Positions 1,990-46,411 of a stretch of 48,254 nucleotides of DNA are shown here, in pieces. Under the pieces are notes generated by a model, which ran no database searches, was not told the origin of the DNA, and saw nothing but the letters and a program-made list of their open reading frames with translations. Position 1 is the first letter of the stretch. Each line of letters starts with the position of its first letter. The position numbers and the translations under genes are program-made. The stretch is from a bacterium (GTDB lineage: Bacteria; Patescibacteriota; Doudnabacteria; UBA920), in the NCBI GenBank assembly GCA_016699995.1, contig CP064996.1, positions 478,330-526,583 on the forward strand. The letters are read 5' to 3'.

Positions 1990-3924
1990 GTGTCCGAAAG
2001 ACGACATTCATTGGATATCATTCCCGATATTGGCGTTCCTAAAAACGGCTTCGAGCTCCAGCACAGGGAAGAAGTATTCTTATCAGAGCAAACAGAGCAA
2101 CGAATTGAGCAAGATACATTGCCCGGTTTTTTAAGTATTGCAAAGGAGGCTGGTGCCAATGAAGAAGAATTGGACCGCCTAGAAGCATGCTACAAAGCTC
2201 TTGGAAGGCGCCCAAGCCAGATTGGGGTAAGCTATGGGTTTCATTTTTCAAACGATGGTAAGTATTTTGGCCCTGTTGTGGGATTAGATCGGCATTACCA
2301 TGCTATGCCTGACGTACTATCGGGCACTGATTTTAAAATTAGACCAGGAGTGGAAAAGCCAAAAATCGCGCCGGTGGACAGTGATAGAATTATGGACACG
2401 TTTGCCAAAGCCAGAATTATGTTCAGTTCCACAGATAACCAGGAGTATCGGGATAAGGTAAATGCCTACGAGAAATCAATTACCAAAATAAACCGCATCA
2501 TGTACAGAGTGCATGACGCTCTTCATATCTATCAAAATATTTTAATCGGGGACGAAATCAACGCTTTAAAATCAAAATTTTCGATGGCCGGCTGGACAAA
2601 TGAGGATGTAGAAAGAAGACTAATTAAGCGTGGTAATTACGCCAAGCTCATCGATTGGCAGCCACCAAAATGGGCAAAGGATTCTATTTTTACTAACCAG
2701 GACGTTCCGGAATACGCAGACATTCCCGACCATAATCCACAAGTGGTTAACAATGAGGCCACAATGGATGTTATGTCCGAATGGCTTTTAAAAGAAGAGC
2801 TTTCCAAGGAACCAGAGCTGATGCTATGGCTCCATAACACAATTACCCATGCAGTTGACGGGCTAAAAGCTATAAGGGAGCAATACCAATCTATAAACAA
2901 TTTGGACAACGCCGACACTTTGCCGCATAAACAGATCGAGCATATTTTAAACATGATATCAGCTGCTTATTTTGCAGTATACGAAAATTCCGAACAGGCA
3001 AAATCAGACTTGATCGAAAAGGAATATTCCGTTGCAGGCCGCCCAGCGCAAGCCACCATCGCCGAAGGTAGTTATTTTGATAGGTGCACCGTCCTGAATT
3101 TAATTTCAGAGCTCCATGAGTACTCGGAGCTGATTATCGCTTACCATGGCTCCCGCCAATTCGGCACCGAAAGAGATGCGAGAGCCGAAGAATATATGGC
3201 CATTAAAAAGAATAAGGCCAGCTTTCCTTCAGGGCAAGAGTGGTCTGCACAAAATTACGTACATGGCCCAATTACCACCAAAGGAGTAGAGACTGCTGCC
3301 AAAATTACTGCCAGCGTAGCCGAAAATAAAGGTAACCTGGACGACCTGATGGCCCTTTTCATGCAGATTCAATCCAGTATGGATGAATCATCGACCCCAG
3401 AAACGCAACAAACTATGCAAACTGCGGTTGCAAAAAGGATAAAAAATTTATACGGTATGGATTTAAATTCCAATGATATTCTTGAAATGAGAAATATTTT
3501 CCATTACATAGACATGTCCGGCCAGCTGAGCAAAGATAAATATCCCTATCAATATGTAATCAGAAAAAAGATAATGGAGCAGATGAAAAATGCTCAGCCC
3601 GAGCAAATTAATCAGCTTATTAAGTGGACAGTGTTTGAATTCCCCATGTATTTTCGTAAAGGCGATTATTTGGAGCTTACCGGATTCGGGGAAGTAGCAA
3701 CAGAAGAGACGCGGATGGACGCAGAGACAAGAAAAGTTCTGCCGTGGGAAAAGATTCTCGCCAGCCATAAGTTAGGCTTATTCAATATTAATATGAAAGC
3801 CCTGCCGCCCGAACAAATTGCAGAAATCAAAGCTCTATACGACCGCGGTTATAAAAAGCATGACCATACCGAAGACTTACGCATTCTGGCAAATATTGCT
3901 AAAATGCAGAAACAAATTGCTTAA
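1990..3924 (+). CDS. hypothetical protein, 644 aa, no domain recognised
   Basis: Long uninterrupted ORF with a GTG start. It lies 11 nt after the NYN gene and ends 6 nt before the PIN gene. No motif recognised by eye. Confidence 0.6.
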   Translation: MSERRHSLDIIPDIGVPKNGFELQHREEVFLSEQTEQRIEQDTLPGFLSIAKEAGANEEELDRLEACYKALGRRPSQIGVSYGFHFSNDGKYFGPVVGLDRHYHAMPDVLSGTDFKIRPGVEKPKIAPVDSDRIMDTFAKARIMFSSTDNQEYRDKVNAYEKSITKINRIMYRVHDALHIYQNILIGDEINALKSKFSMAGWTNEDVERRLIKRGNYAKLIDWQPPKWAKDSIFTNQDVPEYADIPDHNPQVVNNEATMDVMSEWLLKEELSKEPELMLWLHNTITHAVDGLKAIREQYQSINNLDNADTLPHKQIEHILNMISAAYFAVYENSEQAKSDLIEKEYSVAGRPAQATIAEGSYFDRCTVLNLISELHEYSELIIAYHGSRQFGTERDARAEEYMAIKKNKASFPSGQEWSAQNYVHGPITTKGVETAAKITASVAENKGNLDDLMALFMQIQSSMDESSTPETQQTMQTAVAKRIKNLYGMDLNSNDILEMRNIFHYIDMSGQLSKDKYPYQYVIRKKIMEQMKNAQPEQINQLIKWTVFEFPMYFRKGDYLELTGFGEVATEETRMDAETRKVLPWEKILASHKLGLFNINMKALPPEQIAEIKALYDRGYKKHDHTEDLRILANIAKMQKQIA

Positions 3925-17394: not shown

Positions 17395-17456
17395 GTCATA
17401 ATTAACTGTGGCACTCAAGCCGGCACTGCTGCGCTAAACATGCCATCCAAAACGAA

Positions 17457-17816
17457 ATGAACTTATCATGGATCAAAAAAGTGTACCTTTACATGGTATC
17501 GCTTATCTCTCTGGTAATCCTAGTGATCGCCGGAATCATCCTCATTAACCTAGCGCTTAAAACCTGGGTATTCCCCAAGGCGGATACTAATTACTATGCA
17601 CCGGTTATGCGGGTCAATTGCGAATCCCTAAGTGAAGCGGATCGCAAATTGGAACCGTACTGCAGCGACCCAGAGTTTGCAGCCAAGGAAGAACAGCGTG
17701 CTAAAGAGGATCGGGCTGCCCAAAAGCAGCGCGATGCCTCCCAGGCATTAGCCATGATTATTGTTGCCAGTCCAGTGTTCTTTTATCACTGGAAGCTAGC
17801 TCGCAAAGAAGCGTAA
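17457..17816 (+). CDS. hypothetical two-TM membrane protein inserted between rplK and rplA
   Basis: 119-aa ORF with N- and C-terminal hydrophobic helices flanking a charged Cys-containing loop. Confidence 0.5.
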   Translation: MNLSWIKKVYLYMVSLISLVILVIAGIILINLALKTWVFPKADTNYYAPVMRVNCESLSEADRKLEPYCSDPEFAAKEEQRAKEDRAAQKQRDASQALAMIIVASPVFFYHWKLARKEA

Positions 17817-17824
17817 ATTATTAT

Positions 17825-17920
17825 TAGAATGCGGGAATATTTATAAAGTAGGTAGTCTGCTAGCGCCAGACCGCGCAGCGGTCAAGAGCGCTGCCTACGT
17901 ATAAATATTCCTGCATTCTA
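17825..17920 (+). promoter_or_regulatory. 96-nt structured inverted-repeat element upstream of rplA
   Basis: The 21-nt arms 17825-17845 and 17900-17920 are fully complementary, with one G.U if read as RNA. They enclose a GC-rich 54-nt core that can form further helices, for example gtaggta/tgcctac and tctg/caga. Confidence 0.45.
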
Positions 17921-17979
17921 AAAAACATTAATTGGTGGGAGAGCAGAGATACCTGCTCGCAGACCACGAAAGGAAATTT

Positions 17980-18663
17980 ATGACAAAATTGTCAAAGCGC
18001 GTTAAAGCTAACACAGAACAAATCGAAAAGGATAAAGTTTACACTTTAGAGGAAGCTATCGACTTAGCAAAGAAAACTGCTACTACTAAATTCGTCGGCA
18101 GCATCGAAGTGCATGTCCGCACTTCCATTGATGCCCGCAAGACAGACCAGGCTATTCGCGGCTCCGTAACTTTGCCTCACGGCACAGGCAAGACTAAAAA
18201 AATTGCCGCATTCGTATCCGAAGGTAAAGAAGCCGAAGCCAAAGAGGCCGGCGCGGACATCGTTGGCGGCGAAGACTTAATCAAGAAGATTAAGGAAACC
18301 GAAAAAACTGATTTCGACGTAGCAATTGCAGAACCTAGCATGATGCCTAAACTGGCGATTATCGCAAAAATTTTAGGTACCCGAGGCATGATGCCTAACC
18401 CTAAAACTGGCACTATTTCGGACAACATCGCAGGAGCGATAAAGGAAATTGCCGGCGGTAAAATTAACTTCAAGAATGACAACACTGGCAACGTTCATCA
18501 AATTATTGGCAAGACCAATTTTGAATCTAGTCAGTTAATTGAAAATCTTAAAAAGTTTTTGGAAGCTCTTCATGCTTCTAAGCCAGCTGCGGTAAAGAAG
18601 CAGTTTGTAGTAAACGCATCACTTAACTCATCTATGGGTCCGGGGATAAAGTTTAAAGCATAG
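17980..18663 (+). CDS. rplA: 50S ribosomal protein L1
   Basis: MTKLSKRVK...YTLEEAIDLAKK...FVGSIEVHVRT...GSVTLPHGTGK. The ATG at 17980 follows AAAGGA. Confidence 0.95.
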   Translation: MTKLSKRVKANTEQIEKDKVYTLEEAIDLAKKTATTKFVGSIEVHVRTSIDARKTDQAIRGSVTLPHGTGKTKKIAAFVSEGKEAEAKEAGADIVGGEDLIKKIKETEKTDFDVAIAEPSMMPKLAIIAKILGTRGMMPNPKTGTISDNIAGAIKEIAGGKINFKNDNTGNVHQIIGKTNFESSQLIENLKKFLEALHASKPAAVKKQFVVNASLNSSMGPGIKFKA

Positions 18664-22614: not shown

Positions 22615-23292
22615 ATGATTCATTTCAAAAAAGTTACCAAATACTACGGCAATCATAAAGCTTTAAACAACATCGACCTCCGAATTGATCAGGGGGAATT
22701 TGTTTCTTTAGTGGGTATGAGCGGTGCCGGAAAATCAACTTTAATGAAGCTACTGGTGGGAGAAGAAGAACTAGACGACGGAAGCATACTCATCGACGAT
22801 ATCGACATGACCAGAATCCGCAAGACCGACCTGCCGTACCTGCGCAGGAAGATCGGGGTTGTGTTTCAGGATATAAAACTGTTACCAAAACGGACTGCGT
22901 TCGAAAACGTTGCTTTTGCCATGGAGGTTTCTGGCCATCGCAAAGAACAGATAAACAAAGACGTGCCAAAAATTTTAGACTTAGTAGGATTGAACCATAA
23001 AAAAGATAACTTCCCGCACGAAATGAGCGGCGGCGAAAAGCAGCGCGTGGCAATTGCGCGCAGCTTGGCGCATCGTCCGGTTTTGTTATTGGCAGACGAA
23101 CCAACCGGCAACCTCGACGAAATCAATGCAGCAGAAGTTATCGACCTGCTGTTAAAAATCAACGAACTTGGTACAACTGTAATCTTAGCGACCCATGCAG
23201 CCGATTTAGTAAACAAGATCCGCAAGCGCGTTATCACTATCGAAGGCGGGCAAATTACCATGGAACAGCTAAAAGGAAAATACAAACTCTAG
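22615..23292 (+). CDS. ftsE: cell division ABC ATPase FtsE
   Basis: Walker A GMSGAGKST, signature MSGGEKQRV and Walker B LLLADEPTGNLD. Followed by ftsX. Confidence 0.9.
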   Translation: MIHFKKVTKYYGNHKALNNIDLRIDQGEFVSLVGMSGAGKSTLMKLLVGEEELDDGSILIDDIDMTRIRKTDLPYLRRKIGVVFQDIKLLPKRTAFENVAFAMEVSGHRKEQINKDVPKILDLVGLNHKKDNFPHEMSGGEKQRVAIARSLAHRPVLLLADEPTGNLDEINAAEVIDLLLKINELGTTVILATHAADLVNKIRKRVITIEGGQITMEQLKGKYKL

Positions 23293-23293
23293 C

Positions 23294-24211
23294 ATGAAAG
23301 CATTCATCTCACTGTTTCGCATCATCAAAAGCGGTATAACCAATCTAAGGCGCAATCTCTGGCTGGCAGGTGCGTCCACTTTAATCATGACTATTACGCT
23401 GATTATCCTTTCGGTGTTGAGCCTGCTGTTCATCATCACCAGCTACTCTGTAAAATCAATCCAGCAGCGCGTGGACATTAGCGCTTACTTCAAGAGCGAC
23501 GTGTCAGAAGCCCGCGTGCTCACTATACGAGATGAAATCCGCCGGGACTCGCGCATTAAGGAAGTAAACTACGTATCATCCGAACAGGCTCAGGCTGCGT
23601 TCCGCGAAAAGCACCAAGGAGACCAGTTAATAATTGATTCGCTAGGGGAATTAAGCGAGAATCCATTCCCGCCGACTTTGCAAATCAAGGCGGTAAAACT
23701 TGAAGATTTTCCTGCCATTGCAGAATCGCTCAAGGCTGATAAATATAAAGATATAATTTCTGAGGTAAACTTTGAAGATAACCGAGTTATAATCGAACGA
23801 CTCAACTCGCTGTTAAAATTTATCATTACTTTCGGCTTAGTGTTGATGATCGTATTCTGCTTAATCGCTATCCTGGTAATATTTAATACTATTGCCCTCA
23901 CCATTTACAACCGCCGCGAAGAAGTGGAAATTATGCGCCTGGTAGGAGCTACTAACTGGTACATCCGTGGGCCGTTTATTGTGGAGGCATTTATGTACAG
24001 CATTATTGCGGCAGCCATTACCAGCGCATTGCTCATACCCTTGTACTTCCAAATGCTGCCACGCATCAGCAATTACCTCACTCCTGGAGCTAACATCTTC
24101 AACGGCAACATTAGTGTCTTCCTGCTCGTTGTCGTCATCCAACTGATAATCGCATTCATCCTGAGCACTATCTCCAGCCTGCTCGCCATGCGCAAATATT
24201 TACGCATCTAA
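23294..24211 (+). CDS. ftsX: cell division permease-like protein FtsX
   Basis: N-terminal TM, extracellular loop and three C-terminal TM helices. Starts 1 nt after ftsE. Confidence 0.85.
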   Translation: MKAFISLFRIIKSGITNLRRNLWLAGASTLIMTITLIILSVLSLLFIITSYSVKSIQQRVDISAYFKSDVSEARVLTIRDEIRRDSRIKEVNYVSSEQAQAAFREKHQGDQLIIDSLGELSENPFPPTLQIKAVKLEDFPAIAESLKADKYKDIISEVNFEDNRVIIERLNSLLKFIITFGLVLMIVFCLIAILVIFNTIALTIYNRREEVEIMRLVGATNWYIRGPFIVEAFMYSIIAAAITSALLIPLYFQMLPRISNYLTPGANIFNGNISVFLLVVVIQLIIAFILSTISSLLAMRKYLRI

Positions 24212-35043: not shown

Positions 35044-35068
35044 AAAAACCACCCGTAAAGGTGGTTTT
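35044..35068 (-). terminator. intrinsic terminator ending the minus-strand hydrolase operon
   Basis: Stem aaaaccacc/ggtggtttt with a 6-nt loop. Read on the minus strand it is followed by tttttaatt. Confidence 0.7.
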
Positions 35069-35117
35069 AATTGTTTCTATTCTATTCTCTACTACTCCCC
35101 TATGCTAAGGGTATTTC

Positions 35118-35139
35118 ACTTTTTATTATTGACGGTCGT
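35118..35139 (+). repeat. direct repeat copy 2 (actttttattattgacggtcgt)
   Basis: See copy 1. This copy lies between the stop codon at 35159 and the terminator. Confidence 0.7.
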
Positions 35140-35158
35140 TAATTATATTCATAGCAGC

Positions 35159-36130
35159 CTAGAGCGAGATCTGTATAAAATCTGATTCTGTAGAGATAAA
35201 TAGTGACTTAAGCTTTGCATTATAAACTACTTCTAATATATAGCCCTTGATCTTTGTATCGATATCCTTCACAAAGGCTGTTTTCCCATTTAAGTCCAAG
35301 CTGTGCAAGCCAAATTTTTCATTTTGAGTACCAATAACGTAAATTAAACTATCATTTTTTGAGAAAGATATATTAGTTAAGCTGTCTACAATTAAATTAG
35401 TTTTTACGGTACGTTTAGTTTTAAGATTAAACACAGACAATGCATGCCCGGAATTTTCTTGAGACTCGTTGCTGTTATTACTGGATCCATGTATTAATAA
35501 TTTATTACTATCATTGGTAGGTAAAAAATCTAAAAACGTTCCGTTGGCAACTGTTTCCAACTTTTTTTGAGCTAAATTAATCCTTAGTAATTCCACGTTG
35601 TAATCATCACTTTGCATTGGTAATAAATACAAATTCTCAATCTCGTGCCACCTAAGGATGTAAAAAAGATTTTCAGCATAATCCAGCGACACAACAAAGC
35701 TCTTGTAAGATTCCGTAAAATTAGCATCAGAAACGTAAATAGCACTCTCACCTAACTTCGGGTCATAAAAATGATAAGCAACCTGAGAACCATCTGGAGA
35801 AAAAGCGGCATTAATAATTCTCAAATCTAAAGTTTTCTTTTTCTTTGTTACCAAATCAATTAAATCAATCGCCTGACCAGGATACTTAGTAGACCCAATT
35901 GCCAAAACTTTATCTCGCTCCGGAGAATAAATCATACTATAAGGTTCATAGCCTAACTCAAAAACCAAATCCTCTCCCTGAGTGGTCTTTTTAAAATAAG
36001 CTAATTCCTGTCTATCAAAATAATATAGACTCCCATCGCTAGATTCCTGAACCCCAATAGCCAAACTTTCTGAAAGTTGAGCACTATCTTCTGTGTTAAT
36101 AAGAAAATACAAGGCAAATACTAAGCCCAA
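35159..36130 (-). CDS. PD40/TolB-like beta-propeller repeat protein (N-terminus probably extends to the ATG at 36176 across an A8 frameshift)
   Basis: FSPDGSQVAYHF-type PD40 repeat and repeated beta-strand-rich units. The upstream reading frame encodes KKIYFILIIGGILGLVFALYFLI, a TM anchor, but it lacks an ATG/GTG/TTG start. Confidence 0.6.
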   Translation of the reverse strand: MGLVFALYFLINTEDSAQLSESLAIGVQESSDGSLYYFDRQELAYFKKTTQGEDLVFELGYEPYSMIYSPERDKVLAIGSTKYPGQAIDLIDLVTKKKKTLDLRIINAAFSPDGSQVAYHFYDPKLGESAIYVSDANFTESYKSFVVSLDYAENLFYILRWHEIENLYLLPMQSDDYNVELLRINLAQKKLETVANGTFLDFLPTNDSNKLLIHGSSNNSNESQENSGHALSVFNLKTKRTVKTNLIVDSLTNISFSKNDSLIYVIGTQNEKFGLHSLDLNGKTAFVKDIDTKIKGYILEVVYNAKLKSLFISTESDFIQISL

Positions 36131-36178
36131 AATTCCGCCAATAATTAAAATAAAATAAATTTTTTTTACCCATCATAC

Positions 36179-37237
36179 TTAAAAACACTTCCCCTGCTCA
36201 TTCGAGAGACAGCTAAAATGCATATAATCTTTTAGGCTTTTCCACTCCCCTCCCCAACCAAAGCCTTGAGCTTTAAAAGCTTTATAAACAGAGCCATTAG
36301 CCGGAATAGAATATGGGCTGCAATTACTACCAGGACAAGGCCTCCAAAAATCACCTACCGTAGTATTACCTTTGATATAGTAATTTTCTACATAATTTAT
36401 ATCTGTTGCCAAGCCAGCAGCGTGAGCAGAAAGATTCCTACTACCCACAGCGTTACGGAAGGAATAACCACCAACAGACTTTATAGGAAACTTTTCTGGA
36501 TCTTTATATACTTGAGCAAAAGCAGCCTTAAATTTCTCGGCAACACAGCCCTGAACATCTAACGAACTCTTTGAAGCAACCTTAGAAGATCCAGAGAGTT
36601 TCCAAACATCAATAGTAATATTAACCATCTTAGCTCCTGCTGCTGCTGGGGTACGCATAGATAAATCACACGGGCCAGCAGATGAGACGGTTCCGCTACC
36701 AGAGGGTTGAATACCTTCTTCTACAATTATGCAGTCCTTCCCAAACCCTAGCTCCTCGCAGTTGGCTAAGTTTTTAGCATCAAATATCGGTGGTTGAATC
36801 GGTTTGAACGCAACAATATTTGGGTTAATAAAATACAATAGTAAATAACTGCCTAACAAAACCGCCATACCTGTCAAAGCATTCGGTAATACACCCTTTG
36901 CCTTTTCTTTTCCGTTTTGACCTCCTAGGATATATAGATAACCAGAATAGACAACAAAAAATACTAACAGTAGTGCGCCAGCAGAAATTCCAAACTTATA
37001 TAACCGGTTGATGCAACGAACCAAATCTTGACCATCACTATCCTCACTAGGAGCACATACATAATCACGGATACTTTGATCCGCCCCAGCGTTGTAAACT
37101 GGTAGGTCGGTAGGCTCTTGAGCAGGAGACTGGCTCAGTGCGGCTGGGCTTGCCGGTTGAGCAAAAACCAATGTTGGGTTGATCGCAACTGTGATAAATC
37201 CCAGAAAAATTAATATTTTGGAAAGATATTTATACAT
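36179..37237 (-). CDS. pilin-like N-module fused to a VanY/M15-type peptidoglycan peptidase (paralog P1)
   Basis: N-module: signal peptide, DYVCAPS...CINRLYKFG, two TM helices ending FINPN, and CEELGF..CII. The C-terminus has SAHAAGLATDIN...GFGWGGEW...DYMHFS (peptidase M15 H-x6-D...H). Confidence 0.75.
   Translation of the reverse strand: MYKYLSKILIFLGFITVAINPTLVFAQPASPAALSQSPAQEPTDLPVYNAGADQSIRDYVCAPSEDSDGQDLVRCINRLYKFGISAGALLLVFFVVYSGYLYILGGQNGKEKAKGVLPNALTGMAVLLGSYLLLYFINPNIVAFKPIQPPIFDAKNLANCEELGFGKDCIIVEEGIQPSGSGTVSSAGPCDLSMRTPAAAGAKMVNITIDVWKLSGSSKVASKSSLDVQGCVAEKFKAAFAQVYKDPEKFPIKSVGGYSFRNAVGSRNLSAHAAGLATDINYVENYYIKGNTTVGDFWRPCPGSNCSPYSIPANGSVYKAFKAQGFGWGGEWKSLKDYMHFSCLSNEQGKCF
36722..37237 (-). 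repeat. paralogous N-module coding segment, copy in P1
   Basis: Encodes aa 1-172 of P1, alignable residue-by-residue with the P2 and P3 N-termini. Confidence 0.7.
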
Positions 37238-37260
37238 TCAATAAAATAAGTAAAATTCAA

Positions 37261-38892
37261 TCACTCAGAAAAATGCCACCACTCATTATTAAATGGGCTA
37301 AAGCCAGCTGCTGTCATGGTATCTCTCAATAACTTTGCATCAGCATTACTAGACTTGTAATGTGCGGCGGTAGAAAACTCATCGAAATTAGAAGGCATAG
37401 ATGCACCAGATATCGTTAAATCTACAGCTTTACCAAGTGGATGATTACCTCCGGTAGCTATGTATGAACCTAAATAACTATTTGGTTGCTTTGCCTGCTT
37501 ACGTGCCCAATCTACTTTTCCTTTCGCCCATGCAACCATCAGCTCTTGTACAGCTTTTGGTCTATAACAATCGTATATCTCCAAAGTTTTTCCTTTCGCA
37601 GTCAAAGCTTGTTGCGCTTTTTTTAACTGGGTAGACATTGTAGAAGTCATATAACATTTTGCCTGTTTATATAAAGCTGTTCCGGTGAAGTTATCACTGG
37701 TTGCATATTTCATATTAATTTTAACTCCATGGCTCGATTCTGTGACTTCTGTCATTCCCGATAGCGGCGTTACATCAACTGCGACCGTAGAACCAGATGA
37801 GCCACCTCCCCCACCTCCGCCTACACCACCTTTACATGAAGCAATAGAAGACTTCATATTTTCCCAAGTACCACCTTTACCGTCACCTGTTATCCATTGG
37901 CCGCCTAGCTTTAATTCGAAGTGTAAATGAGGACCCAAAGCCCCTCTATACAAAGTAGTCTTTCCAATTTGCTGGCCAGCAGTAACTTGATCTCCTGCCG
38001 CCACATTGGCATCTATATGAGCGAGGTTCGCACACTGATTAGCATTGGAACATCCAGAACCACCAGACCTTGTATCTCCCGTAATTGTTACATAACCACC
38101 GGTGCCATCTCCTAACTCTCTACGAACATCTACTTTCCCGTTAATCGGAGAGTAAACCGGAACTTGATTCCCTTTACCAATAGCTAAGTCTACCGCGCCT
38201 TTAGGATCGTCCGGTGAATTAGGAGCACGCCTTACAGTTCTATGGCCTGTGGCACTTGGGTCTGTCCATGAATTATGGACTGTATTATTAAAACTCTTCA
38301 CGGCTGATGCCTCTATCGGCATAGCACACACCCCACCACCACTTACAACCTGACCAGCATTACCTCCTGTGGTGATAATACAATTTTGATTAAAACCAAT
38401 TTCTTCACAGCTCGGAAGATTACCGGCATCGAAAATTGGCGGCTGGATCCGTTTAATACTCACTAAATTCGGATTGATAAAATATAGAAGCAAATAACCG
38501 CCCAGTAATATGGCCAAGCCAGTACCTGTATTCATTAAGATTTTTTTTGCCTGCTCTTTACCACTTTGTGCGCCACTAATATACAAATACCCAGCATAAA
38601 CAATAAAAAATACTAGTAGTAATGCCCCAGCAGAAGCTCCAAATTTAAACAGACGATTAATACAAATTATTAGATCCTGGCCTTGAGCCTCTGGGCTTGG
38701 GGCACAAAGATAGTCTTTAATGCTTTGATCAACTCCAGCGTTATATACTGGCAGTTCTGGAGGTGCTTCTGCAGGCGGTTGACTCACTGTAGCTGGACTG
38801 GCTGGTTGAGCAAATACCAAAATCGGATTGACCGACATAACAGCCAATCCAAAAATCACTATGAATTTTGTCAGTTTATTTGGCAAGTTCAC
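37261..38892 (-). CDS. pilin-like N-module fused to an M23 endopeptidase and a VanX-like (M15D) D-Ala-D-Ala dipeptidase domain (paralog P2)
   Basis: Same N-module as P1 and P3. M23 block LAHIDANVAAGDQVTAGQQIGK...GPHLHFE. A poly-Gly linker follows. VanX-like block KYATSDNFTG...YDCYRP...GGNHPLGKAVDLTI...NEWWHFS. Confidence 0.8.
   Translation of the reverse strand: MNLPNKLTKFIVIFGLAVMSVNPILVFAQPASPATVSQPPAEAPPELPVYNAGVDQSIKDYLCAPSPEAQGQDLIICINRLFKFGASAGALLLVFFIVYAGYLYISGAQSGKEQAKKILMNTGTGLAILLGGYLLLYFINPNLVSIKRIQPPIFDAGNLPSCEEIGFNQNCIITTGGNAGQVVSGGGVCAMPIEASAVKSFNNTVHNSWTDPSATGHRTVRRAPNSPDDPKGAVDLAIGKGNQVPVYSPINGKVDVRRELGDGTGGYVTITGDTRSGGSGCSNANQCANLAHIDANVAAGDQVTAGQQIGKTTLYRGALGPHLHFELKLGGQWITGDGKGGTWENMKSSIASCKGGVGGGGGGGSSGSTVAVDVTPLSGMTEVTESSHGVKINMKYATSDNFTGTALYKQAKCYMTSTMSTQLKKAQQALTAKGKTLEIYDCYRPKAVQELMVAWAKGKVDWARKQAKQPNSYLGSYIATGGNHPLGKAVDLTISGASMPSNFDEFSTAAHYKSSNADAKLLRDTMTAAGFSPFNNEWWHFSE
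38362..38892 (-). repeat. paralogous N-module coding segment, copy in P2
   Basis: Encodes aa 1-177 of P2. The 32-nt stretch 38432-38463 matches 40716-40747 at 29 of 32 positions. Confidence 0.7.
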
Positions 38893-39628
38893 TGTCTATT
38901 ATTTGCTTGTAATTTTCATATGGCATAACACCTTCTGTTCTTATACCATTAATGAACACTGTAGGTGTAGAATTCACTCCGTACTTTTGACTCAAGTTAT
39001 TTGATTCCTCTATTAAGTCTTTATATAATCTAGTATCAAAGCACTTATTAAAAATTACTGAGTCTACTCCCAATTCTAAAGCTATCTTCTTTAAATTATC
39101 ATCGCTGAAAGCGCCTTGATTTTCTCCAAATTGACCATCAAATAGCCTATCATGATACTCCCAAAATTTACCTTGATCCTTTGCACAAACCGCAGCTTCT
39201 GCGGCCTTAATTGATTCATCGCCCAGAAAAGCTAAATCCCAGTAAATAAATTTCACTTTTCCTGTCTGAATATATTCGCTCTCCATCTTTGGAAAGATCG
39301 TTTTGTGCCATTCACCACAAAACGGGCATTGGAAATCGGCGAATTCAATAACAGTGACTTTTGCGTCATCACTACCCAGTTGAGATTTATATCTTGGAAT
39401 ATCAATTTGAACAGGTGTTTGATCTGTATTAATCTGTGATCCAGAATCTTTATTGACAGAGCCTTGTTCTCTGATCTCCCTTGAGATAAGCCAACCTGCA
39501 CCTAAAATACTGACTCCAATTAACCATGCAGCAATGATTATAGTTACGATAATTGGACTAAATCGCCCTTTAATCTTTTGTTTATCTTCAGACAACTTCT
39601 CGATATCGATATTATTTTGGTGATCCAT
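38876..39628 (-). CDS. DsbA-family thiol:disulfide oxidoreductase, membrane anchored
   Basis: TM helix followed by VIEFADFQCPFCGEWH (CPFC active site) and a thioredoxin-like layout. Overlaps the P2 start by 17 nt. Confidence 0.8.
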   Translation of the reverse strand: MDHQNNIDIEKLSEDKQKIKGRFSPIIVTIIIAAWLIGVSILGAGWLISREIREQGSVNKDSGSQINTDQTPVQIDIPRYKSQLGSDDAKVTVIEFADFQCPFCGEWHKTIFPKMESEYIQTGKVKFIYWDLAFLGDESIKAAEAAVCAKDQGKFWEYHDRLFDGQFGENQGAFSDDNLKKIALELGVDSVIFNKCFDTRLYKDLIEESNNLSQKYGVNSTPTVFINGIRTEGVMPYENYKQIIDSELAK

Positions 39629-39630
39629 AA

Positions 39631-40080
39631 TTATTCATTAAATGGTATAAAATCTTCACAAAAACTAAAGCCATAGCTTATCCCTGACATTTCTGGCCAA
39701 TAGGATGGCGGTATAATCAATGAAATTTTCTGAGAACAAATTGAGTCAGCATCCATTCCAGTGAAATTTAATAACTGTTGTTCTGCATCAATACGTAATT
39801 CATTAATAACAGCATTGGTCTGTTGACTAGGTAATAATACAATTAAAAATTCTTTTGTAACTTTGTCATAAGTAATAAAAAAGTTTTCTGTTTCATGAAG
39901 AGTTAAAATGTCTCCCTGGGATTTGACTGCCCTCTGTTCAAGTAATGCTTCTAAATTAGTTGGTGTTGTTTCTTTAGTTGGTTCGTTATTGCTCTGAGAC
40001 CTAACCAAAACAAACACTAAGCCAGACAAGACTGCGATTACAACTATTATTACAATAGCTAACTTTTGTTTTATACTCAT
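39631..40080 (-). CDS. hypothetical membrane-anchored protein, 149 aa
   Basis: N-terminal TM helix plus an extracytoplasmic domain of about 110 aa. Ends 2 nt before the DsbA gene start. No motif recognised. Confidence 0.55.
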   Translation of the reverse strand: MSIKQKLAIVIIVVIAVLSGLVFVLVRSQSNNEPTKETTPTNLEALLEQRAVKSQGDILTLHETENFFITYDKVTKEFLIVLLPSQQTNAVINELRIDAEQQLLNFTGMDADSICSQKISLIIPPSYWPEMSGISYGFSFCEDFIPFNE

Positions 40081-40117
40081 AAGATTTTATACTAATTTTT
40101 TAAGCATACTTTTATTA

Positions 40118-41179
40118 TCACCTTGGAGGGAAAGTTTTACAAAACTTGCTACGACTAGCAGCAGAATATGGTCCAGGAATTTGACATCGATAAGCTGAGC
40201 AAATCCAATCTTTAAAATTACCTCCTCGGCCCTTATAGAGACCGCACGCAACTTTGGTCTGTGCCGCCACATCACCCAAAGCCGAAACACAGGCTTGCAA
40301 TTCAGCTTTACTCACAGCTAACCGGCAACTAAAATTCTTCCCATTAAACAAAGTTTTTTGACAAGCTTGTGGCATATACGGCTGTCCTTGATGGTAAGTC
40401 AAATTAATCTGCCACAAACCATAAGAGAACGATGTTCCGTCGGCACATTTATCTGAACCTGAGGCTATCGTCAAATTTGCACCACCAGCACTTTCTAGAT
40501 TACAAACCCTTGAAGCATCTTCCGGATTCCACGCGCTACACAACTTCATGTTTTCTACAGAACAAGCACCAGAATTCATAATCTTACAACTCCCAGCGCC
40601 AGCTCCACCAGAACCAGTACTTGGATTAAACACTTGGCCACTGCTACCGCCGGTGGTTATGATACATTTATCAGAAAATCCAATCTCCTCACAACTTGGT
40701 AGATCGGCCGCATTAAAAATTGGCGGCTGAATCCGTTTAATATTGACCAGCTCTGGGTTAATAAAATTAAGTAATAGGAAGCTACCCAACATCACAGCCA
40801 TACCAGTAAATGCTGCTTGTAGTGTCTGCTTAGCTTTTGTTTTAGACGCCTCCGAACCAGTCATGTAAATGTAACCAGCGTATACAATAAAGAACACAAT
40901 CAACACTGCACCCGCAGAAATACCAAAACGATAGAGACGATCAATGCAGTCGAACAAATCTGTCCCAGTACCTTCTGGGGTGCAAAGGTAATCTTTAATG
41001 CTCTGATCTACGCCAGCGTTATAAACTGGTAATTCCGTTGGTTCTTGAGCAGCCGGACGCAGCGGGTCTGGTAAGGAATCTTGAGCATTAGCTTGTAAAG
41101 GCGCCAAAAAAGCAAAAAACTGAAACACAACAATTGTACTAAGTAAAGCAATCTTTAATTTGCGAGCCCAGGTTTTCAT
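40118..41179 (-). CDS. pilin-like N-module fused to a Cys-rich lysozyme-like / lytic transglycosylase domain (paralog P3)
   Basis: Same N-module as P1 and P2. The C-terminal CNLESAGG...SFSYGLWQIN resembles the catalytic E-S...G-L-x-Q-I signature of the SLT/lysozyme superfamily. Many Cys residues. Confidence 0.7.
   Translation of the reverse strand: MKTWARKLKIALLSTIVVFQFFAFLAPLQANAQDSLPDPLRPAAQEPTELPVYNAGVDQSIKDYLCTPEGTGTDLFDCIDRLYRFGISAGAVLIVFFIVYAGYIYMTGSEASKTKAKQTLQAAFTGMAVMLGSFLLLNFINPELVNIKRIQPPIFNAADLPSCEEIGFSDKCIITTGGSSGQVFNPSTGSGGAGAGSCKIMNSGACSVENMKLCSAWNPEDASRVCNLESAGGANLTIASGSDKCADGTSFSYGLWQINLTYHQGQPYMPQACQKTLFNGKNFSCRLAVSKAELQACVSALGDVAAQTKVACGLYKGRGGNFKDWICSAYRCQIPGPYSAASRSKFCKTFPPR
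40646..41179 (-). repeat. paralogous N-module coding segment, copy in P3
   Basis: Encodes aa 1-178 of P3. Confidence 0.7.
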
Positions 41180-41234
41180 TTATATTTATTTCAAATTAAT
41201 TAAGCCGCTTTCGCAATTTAGCGGCGGCTTAATT

Positions 41235-42581
41235 CTATTGTCCCAAGAAGGTCATCGGGTTATAAGTGTATCCCGATGGTACTGAATACGCTCCATAAAC
41301 ATCTGAGTACTTTCCAGGTGTCACGGTGTAGCCGTCGCAGTCAAATACCGAAAAATGTAGATGATAGCCACGTTCTGGACCATAAAGTAAACGAGTAGTA
41401 TTACCAGTGTTGCCTTCGTAACCAACTAAATCCCCTTTCTCAACCTTAGATCCAGTCTTAACTTTAATCGAACGCATGTGAGCATATAACGTAACTATAC
41501 AACGAGCTCCGCTTTTTGTTTCAATATTATGTTTTATAGTACACCAATTGCCATATGCCGCTTCGCCAGTATCACACTTAGCCACCGTTCCATCTGCCGC
41601 TGCATAAATCGGTTTACCAGCTGGGGCAGCGATGTCGATACCGTTATGAGAATTGTAACCAAGTGAACGGAAACCAGTGTTACCGTAACCTTGTGTTAAC
41701 ACGCCGTCCATTGGCCAAGCTAAAACGCCTTTGCTCACCGAAATAGATTTTTTACCACCCTTAGATTGAGCTGCGGAGTCTAAATCGCTCAACTCTTCTA
41801 GAATTTTATACTCTTCGTTTTTAGTCTGACCAAGCAAAGCCTGATAATTCTTTTCTGCACCCTTGGTTTGAGCAAGTAATTGCTCTTTTGCACCGCGCTG
41901 GCTTTCTAAAGTATCTTGACTTATAGCTAATTCATCCTTAAGGGATTCGAGTTTAGCCAAAGACTCTTTAAGATCTTTCTGCTGAGTTTCTAATTTAACT
42001 TTAATTTCTTTAATACGGGACACTAAAGAATAAACTTGATCCTGAACACTGCGCACATATTGTACTTGATCTAAAAAGCTAGAGAAATCATCCGTGCCTA
42101 AACCAATTTGTAAAAAGGAACTGTTATCCAGTTTAGCCAATTGTAAAATCAAAGAAGATAAGATTTTTTTATTCTCATCAATTTCTTCTTGTCGGCGTTG
42201 AATCTGAATTTCTAATTCGTTAATTTGAAGAGTTGTATCTTCTCGTTGAGTCTGATTAGCTTCGATTTGCAATTCTAAAGACTTAATCTGATTATCATAA
42301 ATACTAATCTCATTTTGCAGACTCGCAGACTGGTTACGAGTTTGGCTAATCTGTTGTTGGTAACTATTAATCTGACTCTTAAGTTGCTCCAATTTAAGCT
42401 GTAGACGATCTCGGTCGTTGGCACCATAAACAGTCGGGGTTTTGACAATACTATAACTACCCAAAACAGAGGTCACGACAGCCAAAAAAGCTAAACTTCC
42501 GATGAGTAGAGTTTTAGCATTTTTTTTACCTGTTTTAGAGGGTTTTTCTTGAATTTTTGTTTCTGATTTACTCGTTATCAT
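41235..42581 (-). CDS. coiled-coil M23 (LytM) peptidase, EnvC/PcsB-like architecture
   Basis: TM or signal anchor, then a heptad-rich region of about 230 aa. The C-terminus has HNGIDIAAPAGKPIYAAADG...YAHM...GYHLHFSVF (H-x3-D and H-x-H). Confidence 0.85.
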   Translation of the reverse strand: MITSKSETKIQEKPSKTGKKNAKTLLIGSLAFLAVVTSVLGSYSIVKTPTVYGANDRDRLQLKLEQLKSQINSYQQQISQTRNQSASLQNEISIYDNQIKSLELQIEANQTQREDTTLQINELEIQIQRRQEEIDENKKILSSLILQLAKLDNSSFLQIGLGTDDFSSFLDQVQYVRSVQDQVYSLVSRIKEIKVKLETQQKDLKESLAKLESLKDELAISQDTLESQRGAKEQLLAQTKGAEKNYQALLGQTKNEEYKILEELSDLDSAAQSKGGKKSISVSKGVLAWPMDGVLTQGYGNTGFRSLGYNSHNGIDIAAPAGKPIYAAADGTVAKCDTGEAAYGNWCTIKHNIETKSGARCIVTLYAHMRSIKVKTGSKVEKGDLVGYEGNTGNTTRLLYGPERGYHLHFSVFDCDGYTVTPGKYSDVYGAYSVPSGYTYNPMTFLGQ

Positions 42582-42588
42582 TACTGTG

Positions 42589-42597
42589 ATTATAGCA
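42589..42597 (-). promoter_or_regulatory. extended -10 promoter (TGcTATAAT on the minus strand), 7 nt upstream of the ATG at 42581; leaderless-type
   Basis: The minus strand reads tgctataat-cacagta-ATG. Confidence 0.5.
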
Positions 42598-42605
42598 CAA
42601 AATCA

Positions 42606-42635
42606 AAGACTTTTGAAGTGTTATTCAAAAGTCTT
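42606..42635 (-). terminator. hairpin terminator after gltX
   Basis: 12-bp stem aagacttttgaa/ttcaaaagtctt with a 6-nt loop. Read on the minus strand it is followed by attttgtgc. Confidence 0.55.
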
Positions 42636-45556: not shown

Positions 45557-46411
45557 TTATCCATTCTTTTCTAAGCAGGAATTAAAACTATTTACCTGCT
45601 GATTATATTCGTTAACTATTGTTTTGGTCTTGTCGATTAAAACATTGAGCTGCTCTGCTCGGGTATTATGCTCTGCCACAGCAGCCTCGTATTCGGCACG
45701 GGTCTTGTAGCGGTTGGCTTGAATCTGCGCGCGCAAAACGGATAGCTGCGCTTCTTGCTCTTCGATTGTTTCGCGGTTGCGGTCGATCTGGCTCTTTAAG
45801 CTCACGCTCGGCGTCGGACAGTTAGACATCGGCGCGCCAAATTCCTGCACAGCCAGCCACACTTCTTTGCCTTCAAACATGCCGCGTCCAACAGCTACGC
45901 CAATCTCGTTAAATTTGCTATCCAAAATGTTAGCGCGATGGCCAGGACTGTTCATCCAGGCTTCTACCAAAACTTGATCATTTTCGTAATTACCCAAAGC
46001 TAAGTTCTCCCCACTACTAAATATTCATAGCCCGCGGCTTTGATAACATCGGAGGGATGCTTGCCATCCGGAGATTCATGTTCAAAAGTATTGCTGTCGA
46101 AACATATCGTCCAGTTTTGCTTTAGCAGCTAAATTGAGTTTTGCATTCATACGCAGCGGCATCTGTTTGTACAATTCGCGCTGCTTGTTGGTTTCTTCGA
46201 TAACTCCGTTTAGGGTGAGATTGCTATTGCTAGCATCCAATGGTCCGCGCAATGGCCCAGATAAAGACTCCGGTACCGGCACTTGCGATAACAACCCATG
46301 AAAGTATTGGCCGCTCTTTACCCAATTACCAACACGCTGCGGCAAACCTTCGTAAATAGCTATTCCGCCGAATACCAAAACCAGCAAAATTATCAGAAAT
46401 TTATTCTTCAT
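45557..46411 (-). pseudogene. CAP/SCP (YkwD-like) secreted protein gene interrupted by two compensating 1-nt indels
   Basis: The N-terminal part (46082-46411) and C-terminal part (45557-45997) are in the same frame. The 84 nt between them encode FEHESPDGKHPSDVIKAAGYEYLVVG only in a shifted frame. The C-terminal part continues GENLALGNYENDQVLVEAWMNSPGHRANIL. Confidence 0.7.

Follow-up and report, generated by a model that had tools for sequence, protein, structure and literature searches.

What would a bacterium gain by fusing pilin-like membrane modules to enzymes that cut peptidoglycan, and whose wall would such enzymes cut? The question is raised by an operon of a Doudnabacteria bacterium (Patescibacteriota; assembly GCA_016699995.1) that lies within 48,254 nucleotides of contig CP064996.1, a stretch analysed as a whole and here called the window. 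The operon encodes an EnvC-like M23 peptidase (g1), three paralogous fusions of a pilin-type module to putative wall hydrolases (P3, P2 and P1, encoded by g2, g5 and g6), a small bitopic protein (g3), a DsbA-like oxidoreductase (g4) and a putative beta-propeller protein (g7). The answer tentatively favoured here, to which slightly less than an even chance is given, is that autolysins tethered by a pilin-derived hairpin act with the EnvC-like protein on the cell's own wall. The locus appears to be one member of a large, apparently undescribed family of Patescibacteria pilin-hydrolase fusions.

Organization of the operon

Seven co-directional open reading frames (ORFs) span positions 35159-42581 of the minus strand head to tail in the ORF list of the window, with gaps, in gene order, of 55, 37, 2, -17, 23 and 48 nucleotides, in agreement with the original prediction of seven minus-strand genes spaced by -17 to 55 nucleotides. 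Hydropathy analysis found an N-terminal hydrophobic segment in all seven products, and these signal peptides or membrane anchors predict, as far as topology can be read from hydropathy, that the proteins act outside the cytoplasm. The features of the unit and its boundaries, in the direction of transcription, are as follows.

42606-42635, minus strand: hairpin terminator of gltX, a 12-bp stem followed by a T-rich tail, marking the 5' boundary of the operon
42589-42597, minus strand: extended -10 box TGcTATAAT, 7 nucleotides 5' of the g1 ATG (42581), read directly and also the top-scoring site in a promoter scan
41235-42581, minus strand: g1, membrane-anchored EnvC-like protein of 448 amino acids; transmembrane segment at residues 24-42, coiled coil at about residues 55-270 (41772-42419), M23 domain at residues 311-413 (41343-41651)
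40118-41179, minus strand: g2, encoding P3, 353 amino acids; module at residues 1-178 (40646-41179), Cys-rich and probably lysozyme-like cargo at residues 196-353 (40121-40594)
39631-40080, minus strand: g3, bitopic protein of 149 amino acids; transmembrane segment at residues 8-26, small alpha/beta ectodomain, two Cys
38876-39628, minus strand: g4, membrane-anchored DsbA-like oxidoreductase of 250 amino acids; transmembrane segment at residues 26-44, CPFC at residues 101-104
37261-38892, minus strand: g5, encoding P2, 543 amino acids; module (38362-38892), M23-like domain (37897-38196), G7 linker (37801-37821), VanX-type M15 domain (37267-37755)
36179-37237, minus strand: g6, encoding P1, 352 amino acids; module (36713-37237), M15_4 domain of VanY/LAS type (36212-36445)
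35159-36176, minus strand: g7, transmembrane-anchored putative PD40-type beta-propeller; called ORF 35159-36130 (323 amino acids), likely ATG at 36176
35045-35068, minus strand: palindromic hairpin AAAACCACC-N6-GGTGGTTTT downstream of g7, an intrinsic terminator usable on both strands

Scanning the window for consensus promoters gave no overall enrichment (34 sites against 24 +/- 5 in shuffled sequences), and the scan for terminator-like sites (10 against 6.6 +/- 2.4 in shuffles) is by itself statistically unpersuasive. The promoter originally proposed for the operon is nevertheless accepted, because the box is kept in eight related loci and not because of the consensus scan: TGnTATAAT is found 7 nucleotides before the g1 ATG in the window and the related loci, or 9 nucleotides before it in locus L002, within a spacer sequence that is otherwise unconserved across the nine genomes compared (the window, L001, L002, L004, L007, L008, L009, L010 and L013). 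Standard promoter geometry would place the transcription start from a -10 box 7-9 nucleotides from the ATG at or next to the A of that codon, and g1 is very probably translated from a leaderless mRNA in this lineage. The terminator predicted at the other end was recovered as the hairpin at 35045-35068. The operon is a self-contained, separately promoted chromosomal unit of a Patescibacteria lineage.

A pilin-type module shared by P1, P2 and P3

Over approximately their first 175 amino acids, P1, P2 and P3 are 56-65% identical. The module runs from a signal peptide ending in VFAQ through LPVYNAGxDQSIxDYxCxP...C, a first helix, a Lys-rich loop and a second helix ending in FINP to IQPPIF...CEExGF...CII, and all of the motifs originally listed for it were located in the three proteins. 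Each has a signal-peptide segment and two transmembrane segments by hydropathy, and an AlphaFold2 (AF2) model of P3 contains a helical hairpin (residues 74-107 and 110-140) with a predicted local distance difference test (pLDDT) score of 81-90. The hairpin is preceded by an outer part of about 45 amino acids and followed by one of about 35, each with a Cys pair. The loop between the helices reads SKTKAKQ, GKEQAKK and GKEKAKG in the three paralogs; by the positive-inside rule this Lys-rich loop is cytoplasmic, which puts both Cys-pair segments and the cargo outside. On that topology the enzyme domains should be situated on the outer face of the membrane.

The original assignment of the module to pilins of the VirB2/TrbC type holds transitively, through relatives retrieved by searching a module profile against 1.84 billion representative proteins, whereas the proteins of the window are themselves below threshold. 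Their T4SS_pilin (PF18895) scores (P3 18.4, P2 23.3 and P1 17.2 bits, over profile positions 5-62 of 71) fall short of the Pfam cut-off of 26.6, but the same family is matched at E <= 0.001 by 66 of the 120 best module relatives (best 9.8e-28), and TrbC/VirB2 (PF04956) is matched by six of the 120. T4SS_pilin is also matched by 26 of 36 members of the P3 family, for which P3 of the window and 35 homologues were scanned. Because its relatives match these two families, the module is placed, on profile evidence, inside the VirB2-like pilin superfamily proper, in a distinct branch with extra segments, predicted to bear disulfides, at both outer ends.

At the level of DNA the three paralogs have just one repeat in common, a stretch of 81 nucleotides with 69-79% identity, and the paralogs are therefore old; recent gene conversion between them is ruled out on the same grounds. 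The part of the module that is most conserved in DNA (LPVYNAG..SI.DY.C; 41012-41032, 38734-38754 and 37085-37105) bears a weak likeness, probably by chance, to the N-terminus of the Staphylococcus aureus Atl amidase (4knk, SLPKYKPQVNSSINDYIC; 16 bits, E 0.036). This alignment of the N-terminal motif was the sole match in a profile search with the P3 family against PDB sequences.

Descent from conjugative-type pilins invites a host-directed reading, in which a type IV secretion system (T4SS) would extract the modules, the modules would co-polymerise with unfused VirB2-like pilins, and the enzymes so displayed on the surface would cut the wall of a host cell at contact. Such an armed pilus is possible but on balance unlikely. 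Family membership by transitive profile evidence speaks for it, as does the outward orientation of both ends of the hairpin, so that C-terminal cargo need not cross the membrane. Module identity is 47-65% among close members and 34% to the most distant of eight aligned, against a reported average of about 25% for pilins within arrays (PMC12102498), which fits a constrained assembly interface. However, P1, P2 and P3 are proteins of 352-543 amino acids with catalytic domains C-terminal to the hairpin and not small stand-alone subunits, and by our own estimate, which was not computed, a domain of 17-40 kDa on each subunit would be hard to fit on a VirB2-type lattice. In S. epibionticum the T4SS pilin array is essential (PMC10633639), and the lysozyme-like and peptidase-like genes beside virB4 are likewise reported to be essential (PMC12102498), both of which are in keeping with an armed pilus.

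Wall-hydrolase cargo of the fusions

The later two fusions carry D-Ala-D-Ala-directed peptidase domains. P1, originally described as a module joined to a VanY-like M15 peptidase, matches Peptidase_M15_4 (PF13539) with an E value of 2.2e-18 and has the motifs HAAGLATD and DYMH, which bears the description out. In P2, the VanX-type domain matches Peptidase_M15 (PF01427; 1.4e-29) and the NCBIfam D-Ala-D-Ala dipeptidase NF007557 (1.1e-28) and has the motifs YRP, HPLGKAVD and EWWH; the H-x6-D and E/D-x-x-H motifs are intact in the M15 cargo of both proteins. The predicted order of module, M23 domain, poly-Gly linker and VanX-like dipeptidase in P2 thus stands as an architecture, which recurs in the relatives P0183, P0196, P0202, P0009, P0015 and P0217, but the M23-like domain (Peptidase_M23, 4.8e-11) lacks the first His of HxxxD. 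It keeps HLH (residues 322-324) and the central His, but at its HxxxD site the sequence is KGAVD (L/Q-G-A/T-V-D in homologues), in which Gly stands where the solved M23 structure 5kqb has His; in the absence of this first zinc ligand, its catalytic competence is uncertain. The subfamily of P2-type M23 domains without the first HxxxD His (38188-38202, residues 231-235, in P2; also P0028, P0032 and P0041) keeps HxH and has a conserved His about 12-25 residues upstream of the site (VHNSW, GHRTVRR), and it may represent either a degenerate regulatory LytM domain or a domain with an alternative ligand. Linker length, counted from the end of the module to the start of the Pfam domain, is about 20 amino acids for P3, about 55 for P2 and at most about 90 for P1.

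Un-cross-linked D-Ala-D-Ala termini are concentrated in nascent peptidoglycan beside the producing membrane. The cargo of P2 and P1 therefore has its substrate mainly in nascent wall, which favours action on the cell's own wall, and a DD-dipeptidase would find few substrates in the mature cross-linked wall of a host, which counts against an armed pilus. An enzyme of the VanX type also releases free D-Ala from D-Ala-D-Ala, and the biosynthetic capacity of Patescibacteria is very reduced (PMC11665869), so it might be supposed that the tethered enzymes scavenge nutrients: wall fragments from the environment or shed by a host would yield muropeptides, D-Ala and amino sugars to a cell unable to make them. 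This is very improbable, as the operon has no linked gene for transport or catabolism and both the EnvC-like protein and the membrane tether would be superfluous.

The cargo of P3 is probably lysozyme-like. The lysozyme/SLT-like domain of the original prediction is sustained by its motifs, NLES (residues 227-230) and GLWQIN (residues 254-259): across the P3 family E229-S230 hardly varies and G254 and Q257 do not vary at all, and SLT_3 is matched by five of the 36 members (best 1.9e-6) and SLT by two. The score of P3 itself against SLT_3 is only 16 bits (E 0.017), and although the cargo, which holds 12 of the 16 Cys of the protein, was modelled by AF2 at pLDDT > 90, a Foldseek search of the P3 model against PDB and BFVD returned no lysozyme match, only helical-hairpin noise. 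Profile alignment by hhalign gave a probability of 1.6% against SLT-type cargos, with only the GLxQI motif aligned, and of 35% (local) or 6.9% (global) against C-type lysozyme sequences entered by hand, a likeness at the level of motifs only.

The original reading of g4 as a DsbA-like protein with a CPFC active site was confirmed by matches to Thioredoxin_4 (PF13462; 8e-35) and DSBA (PF01323; 1.9e-16) and by the CPFC motif itself, and DsbA was found only in loci with the Cys-rich type of cargo. No family match to g3 was obtained, and a homologue search yielded two sequences only. The AF2 model built from that two-sequence alignment has an ectodomain with pLDDT 84-93, for which Foldseek gave no significant PDB match (best E 0.25, template modelling score < 0.3). 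A VirB8-like identity (NTF2 fold) for g3 was considered and dropped, there being no VirB8-type T4SS structure among the 50 best Foldseek PDB matches listed.

An EnvC-like protein at the head of the operon

The first gene was originally described as a coiled-coil M23 peptidase with intact H-x3-D and H-x-H motifs, and the description holds: Peptidase_M23 is matched with an E value of 5.9e-24, HNGID (residues 312-316), YAH and HLH (residues 407-409) are intact, and the protein aligns to 9gy1 and 5j1l. Residues 49-397 of g1 align (E 9.2e-12) with residues 32-360 of chain E of PDB 8TZK, the entry of a Vibrio cholerae FtsEX-EnvC study, in which chain E is EnvC. By these alignments g1 is an EnvC-like anchored coiled-coil protein with a predicted catalytically intact M23 endopeptidase domain; since its LytM domain is not degenerate, it is closer to the active-hydrolase partners of monoderms than to EnvC itself. 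It is also the best-conserved member of the operon, with 60-82% identity in the eight related loci. A candidate partner is encoded elsewhere in the window.

22615-24211, plus strand: ftsE-ftsX pair, outside the operon, with matches to ABC_tran (5.1e-37), FtsX_ECD (5.7e-14) and FtsX (8.4e-14)

The suggestion that this pair could drive the EnvC-like protein has gained strength from the alignment to 8TZK and from synteny, ftsEX being a neighbour of the operon in all six of the related loci, out of nine at this site, for which the DNA extends to it. A division-type protein at the head of the operon favours the own-wall reading and counts against an armed pilus.

The EnvC-like protein also bears on the idea that the fusions substitute for VirB1, with the pilin module targeting hydrolases to an assembling T4SS or other envelope machine, where they would open a local hole in the cell's own peptidoglycan for the channel or pilus. 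A pilin-like module is a plausible T4SS address label, PrgK and TraG combine an SLT-type glycosidase with a CHAP-type peptidase in a cargo set similar to that of the operon, and other glycosidases have been proposed to fill the VirB1 role (PMC12102498). The substitution is nonetheless improbable: it is hard to see why hole-punching would need at least three specificities, D-Ala-D-Ala peptidases and an EnvC-like protein, the operon was never beside T4SS genes in the loci examined, and the turnover of cargo between relatives would be unexplained.

Conservation and variation of the locus

The complete arrangement is present in the window and in all eight related loci named above; in a ninth, L003, the DNA ends at a contig end and only the downstream half, from the C-terminus of the first fusion on, is available. 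Upstream, the order is def, CAP, WecG/NUDIX and gltX. The operon itself consists of the M23 coiled-coil gene, a pilin-glycosidase fusion, a transmembrane protein of 146-176 amino acids, in some cases DsbA, and one or two pilin-peptidase fusions. Downstream, 0-3 kb of variable genes are followed by an aminotransferase, a methyltransferase, CTP synthase, ftsX, ftsE and release factor (RF) genes, the first four of these with other genes between them; the methyltransferase and CTP synthase genes are present in every locus whose DNA reaches that far. Four extra genes, including thyA and a dCMP deaminase gene, separate the operon from the aminotransferase gene in the window and L010. The seven-gene operon of the original prediction exists in that form only in the genome of the window, and what is general is a four-gene core, found in all eight related genomes in which the region is complete, with DsbA optional and with no counterpart of g7 in any related locus.

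Two-transmembrane segments beside muralytic domains superficially resemble holin-endolysin pairs, but the proposition that the locus is a lysis cassette of a prophage or mobile element, with the module as a holin fused to endolysins, has next to no probability and is effectively refuted by synteny: the operon occupies the same housekeeping position in ten genomes, accompanied by no phage or integrase genes, its module has a cleavable signal peptide and matches profiles of pilins and not of holins, and its paralogs are old by the DNA comparison given above.

Searches of the 48-kb window for VirB4, VirB6, PrgI and coupling-protein families were negative, and there is no T4SS gene among the called genes in flanks of up to 10 kb on each side of L001, L007, L008, L009, L010 and L013. 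For lack of such genes in the window or flanks a role in a pilus is unproven, and that none lies near the operon in any of the ten genomes counts against an armed pilus.

Two types of cassette occupy the middle of the operon. Type A, in the window, L010, L001 and L002, combines Cys-rich cargo like that of P3 with a g3 of about 150 amino acids with two Cys and with DsbA. Type B, in L004, L007, L008, L009 and L013, combines other cargo (Pfam SLT in L007, L008 and L013; no Pfam match in L009; L004 not scanned) with a g3 of about 170 amino acids without Cys and has no DsbA; the partial locus L003 likewise has a type B g3 and no DsbA. L001 (type A) and L007 (type B) are mutually closest at housekeeping loci (78%), and L002 (type A) is among the loci most distant from the window (68%), figures that are indicative only, as the sets of housekeeping markers pooled differ between loci. 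The distribution of the two types is thus out of step with the relatedness of the genomes. It suggests that the cassette has been replaced, apparently irrespective of how close the genomes are, and that glycosidase cargo, g3 and DsbA are functionally linked.

Polymorphic cargo and a cassette swapped between related genomes would suit an armed pilus. A version of that reading in which the fusions are minor subunits of a T4SS-type pilus with a changeable wall-cutting set, boring through the wall of the host and that of the producer, with g3 as the cognate inhibitor that protects the producer, is doubtful, and somewhat more so than the armed pilus in general.

Among other observations on these loci, the otherwise conserved neighbourhood is interrupted in L008 by a reverse transcriptase gene (RVT_1, 350 residues; 17422-18474) between those for L27 and CTP synthase. 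In the window, a 644-residue ORF at 1990-3924 without a Pfam match at E <= 0.05 is flanked by a 197-residue ORF (after RmuC) and a 147-residue ORF (before an AddA-like helicase-nuclease), and may be a divergent AddB-type partner.

The putative beta-propeller gene and its reading frame

The seventh gene was originally described as encoding a PD40 beta-propeller, for which matches are marginal (PD40 E 0.099, TolB 0.064, DUF7099 0.016), although one clear FSPDGSQVAY motif is present. In a two-sequence search g7 was weakly similar (E 1.8e-6) to anchored Tricorn-like propellers encoded beside distant pilin-SLT fusions. The called start is probably wrong: it is a TTG that splits a hydrophobic segment, whereas ATGATG at 36176 begins the sequence MMGKK-IYFILIIGGILGLVFALYFLI, which has the form of a normal membrane anchor. 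A single A in an A8 run (36161-36168) separates the two frames, and the corrected start brings the gap between g6 and g7 down to 2 nucleotides. The shift is likely a homopolymer error of the assembly, the alternative being a real slippage or phase site; an assembly error is likely because compensating frameshifts occur in a CAP-domain gene nearby. That gene (45563-46411, minus strand) aligns end to end with a 284-residue orthologue but is called as a 146-residue ORF, and has two compensating frameshifts about 90 nucleotides apart (approximately 45990-46085), one of them in a G-run, which may be homopolymer errors or mark a pseudogene.

Distribution of pilin-hydrolase fusions

The module profile matched 22,662 proteins at E <= 1e-3, 1,107 at <= 1e-10 and 118 at <= 1e-30, and 142 of the 150 best relatives are longer than 200 amino acids. 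Among the best 120, recognised cargo comprises SLT (10 proteins), Peptidase_M15 (8), M23 (7), Peptidase_C39_2 (5), M15_4 (3), VanY (3), GDSL lipase (3), Amidase_2 (2) and CHAP (1), and many more cargos match no recognised family. P0032 and P0041, of about 790 amino acids, have three cargo regions by eye: M23-like, VanX-like and a further C-terminal one. The original prediction that no described system combines pilin-like carriers with muralytic enzymes agrees with literature searches, which found no description of pilin-hydrolase fusions, but the design is not peculiar to this locus and belongs to a large, recurrent family.

In two distant relatives, P0075 (L011:589-2427) and P0081 (L012:1361-3217), a single SLT domain comes after four pilin modules in tandem, and a gene for a transmembrane-anchored Tricorn/PD40-like propeller lies directly 3' of each. 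A YkuD L,D-transpeptidase gene is upstream of P0075; upstream of P0081 is a pilin-NlpC/P60 fusion, and downstream are jag, yidC, rnpA and dnaA, so that this locus adjoins the replication origin. Proteins with four modules resemble polytopic anchors more than polymerising subunits, which favours tethering and tells against an armed pilus. On the other side, an armed pilus would have suitable partners in the unfused pilins with the same N-terminal extension that exist (P0082, P0095 and P0131).

The context of unfused extended pilins was examined on two contigs, both shorter than 2 kb. In L015, a contig of 1.3 kb, the unfused extended pilin P0131 (779-1288) is encoded directly downstream of an M23 peptidase gene (1-753), a further case of adjacent M23 and pilin genes. 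A bAvd and RVT_1 pair resembling a diversity-generating retroelement is located in L005 (7321-8744), and also in L006, 1.3 kb from P0227, a solo fusion of pilin and lysozyme-like domains.

Proposed action on the cell's own wall

In the own-wall reading, the pilin-derived hairpin would be mainly a membrane tether and targeting device, by which an enzyme for glycan strands, endopeptidases for cross-links and D-Ala-D-Ala peptidases would all stay within a few nanometres of the membrane of the producing cell. Glycan strands would be cut by P3, cross-links by g1 and perhaps P2, and D-Ala-D-Ala termini by P2 and P1, and the tethered enzymes would remodel and split the cell's own wall in growth and division. 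FtsEX would probably act as the switch of g1, and g3 would probably be a cognate partner or inhibitor of the glycosidase.

This reading is favoured because the operon is fixed among housekeeping genes, with none of the T4SS genes in the DNA examined nearby, and because the unit is headed by an EnvC-type gene and ftsEX is syntenic. It is favoured further because all seven products have N-terminal hydrophobic segments and the tethers are short to moderate (from about 20 to about 90 amino acids). The company kept by related fusions points the same way: in L013, which also has a pilin-M23-M15 fusion, a pilin-Amidase_2 fusion lies behind the EnvC-like gene, and the distant fusions adjoin YkuD in L011 or the pilin-NlpC/P60 fusion, yidC, rnpA and dnaA in L012.

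Several points weigh against it. The module is, by its profile relations, a true relative of conjugative pilins, and enzyme activity, localisation and contact with FtsX are all predicted only. The cargo of the later fusions differs between close relatives: M23 with VanX, M15_4, an amidase, M23 with a domain resembling C39_2 (not scanned individually), and several unrecognised domains. In L010 a single later fusion has cargo that matches no Pfam family and neither cargo of the window, and in the L004 fusion (P0028) the M23-like region precedes a C-terminal domain similar to the third cargo region of P0032 and P0041. The apparent swapping of cassettes would be more usual for an interaction or effector locus than for core enzymes of division. 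Epibiotic growth of a cultured Saccharibacterium is reported to require both T4SS pilins and hydrolases linked to the T4SS (PMC10633639; PMC12102498). The operon is lacking in S. epibionticum ML1, whose supplementary Pfam table has no M23, M15 or M15_4 match, and is therefore not a universal requirement for division; the PF18895 pilins of this strain, seven in number, stand alone, and the hydrolases linked to its T4SS are large proteins of their own.

Comparison with known systems

Patescibacteria account for a large share of bacterial diversity and are mostly attached to host bacteria. In a sizeable branch of the VirB2-like pilin family, pilin units form one polypeptide with peptidoglycan hydrolases, whose specificities are many, and one lineage has such fusions in a conserved operon that is transcribed separately and also encodes an EnvC-like protein, which bears on how Patescibacteria handle their own wall and that of the host. 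If the modules are only anchors, the pilin fold has been recruited for anchoring and provides a new way to confine autolysins. If they polymerise, the fusions would constitute a new kind of armed pilus and offer a molecular handle on how epibionts breach their hosts; to our knowledge, an enzymatically armed pilus of conjugative type is a delivery principle that has not been described for any secretion system.

The nearest relatives of the module are the T4SS pilins of Patescibacteria (PF18895), as in the arrays of S. epibionticum ML1 and N. lyticus TM7x, with which it shares a signal peptide, two helices joined by a short basic loop, the occurrence of several paralogs side by side and a profile relation through its relatives. 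VirB2-like pilins have been mapped across Patescibacteria, where they are abundant (Quinonero-Coronel et al., PMC12102498), and S. epibionticum, the only species in which this has been tested, requires its pilin array (PMC10633639). The published pilins are small stand-alone proteins of about 125-180 amino acids in arrays near virB4 (PMC12102498). In contrast, the modules of the operon carry enzymes of 170-370 amino acids and extra Cys-pair segments on both outer ends, have no T4SS genes nearby in the window or the flanks examined, and are 56-65% identical among paralogs against about 25% on average within pilin arrays (PMC12102498).

EnvC of Escherichia coli and V. cholerae, and PcsB, CwlO and RipC of monoderms, are coiled-coil hydrolases or activators under FtsEX control. 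In g1 a similar build is seen, with a membrane anchor, an extended coiled coil and LytM/M23 at the C-terminus, and the window has a syntenic ftsEX pair. Whereas EnvC has a degenerate LytM domain and activates amidases, g1 keeps HxxxD and HxH, and unlike g1 none of these proteins is encoded in one operon with pilin-fused hydrolases. In S. epibionticum a coiled-coil CHAP protein beside FtsX takes the place of a g1-like M23 protein.

Polymorphic effector systems, including the wall-hydrolase effectors of type VI and type VII secretion systems, resemble the locus in having a conserved N-terminal module with swapped wall-degrading cargo at the C-terminus, and the small exported neighbour g3, the subtype of which tracks the glycosidase cargo, is reminiscent of their immunity genes. 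The operon differs in that no delivery machine is linked to it and that one candidate partner gene serves two or three enzymes; as a counterpart of an immunity gene g3 is putative only, its fold having matched nothing in PDB.

The monoderm VirB1-type hydrolases PrgK of pCF10, TraG of pIP501 and CwlT of ICEBs1 have an N-terminal membrane anchor. Like the products of the operon, these wall hydrolases pair a glycosidase with a peptidase domain, two or more hydrolase domains being present in PrgK and TraG (references in PMC12102498). All three are encoded inside conjugation gene clusters, with anchors that have not been described as resembling pilins, whereas in the operon the activities are split over two or three hairpin-bearing proteins encoded in a housekeeping neighbourhood.

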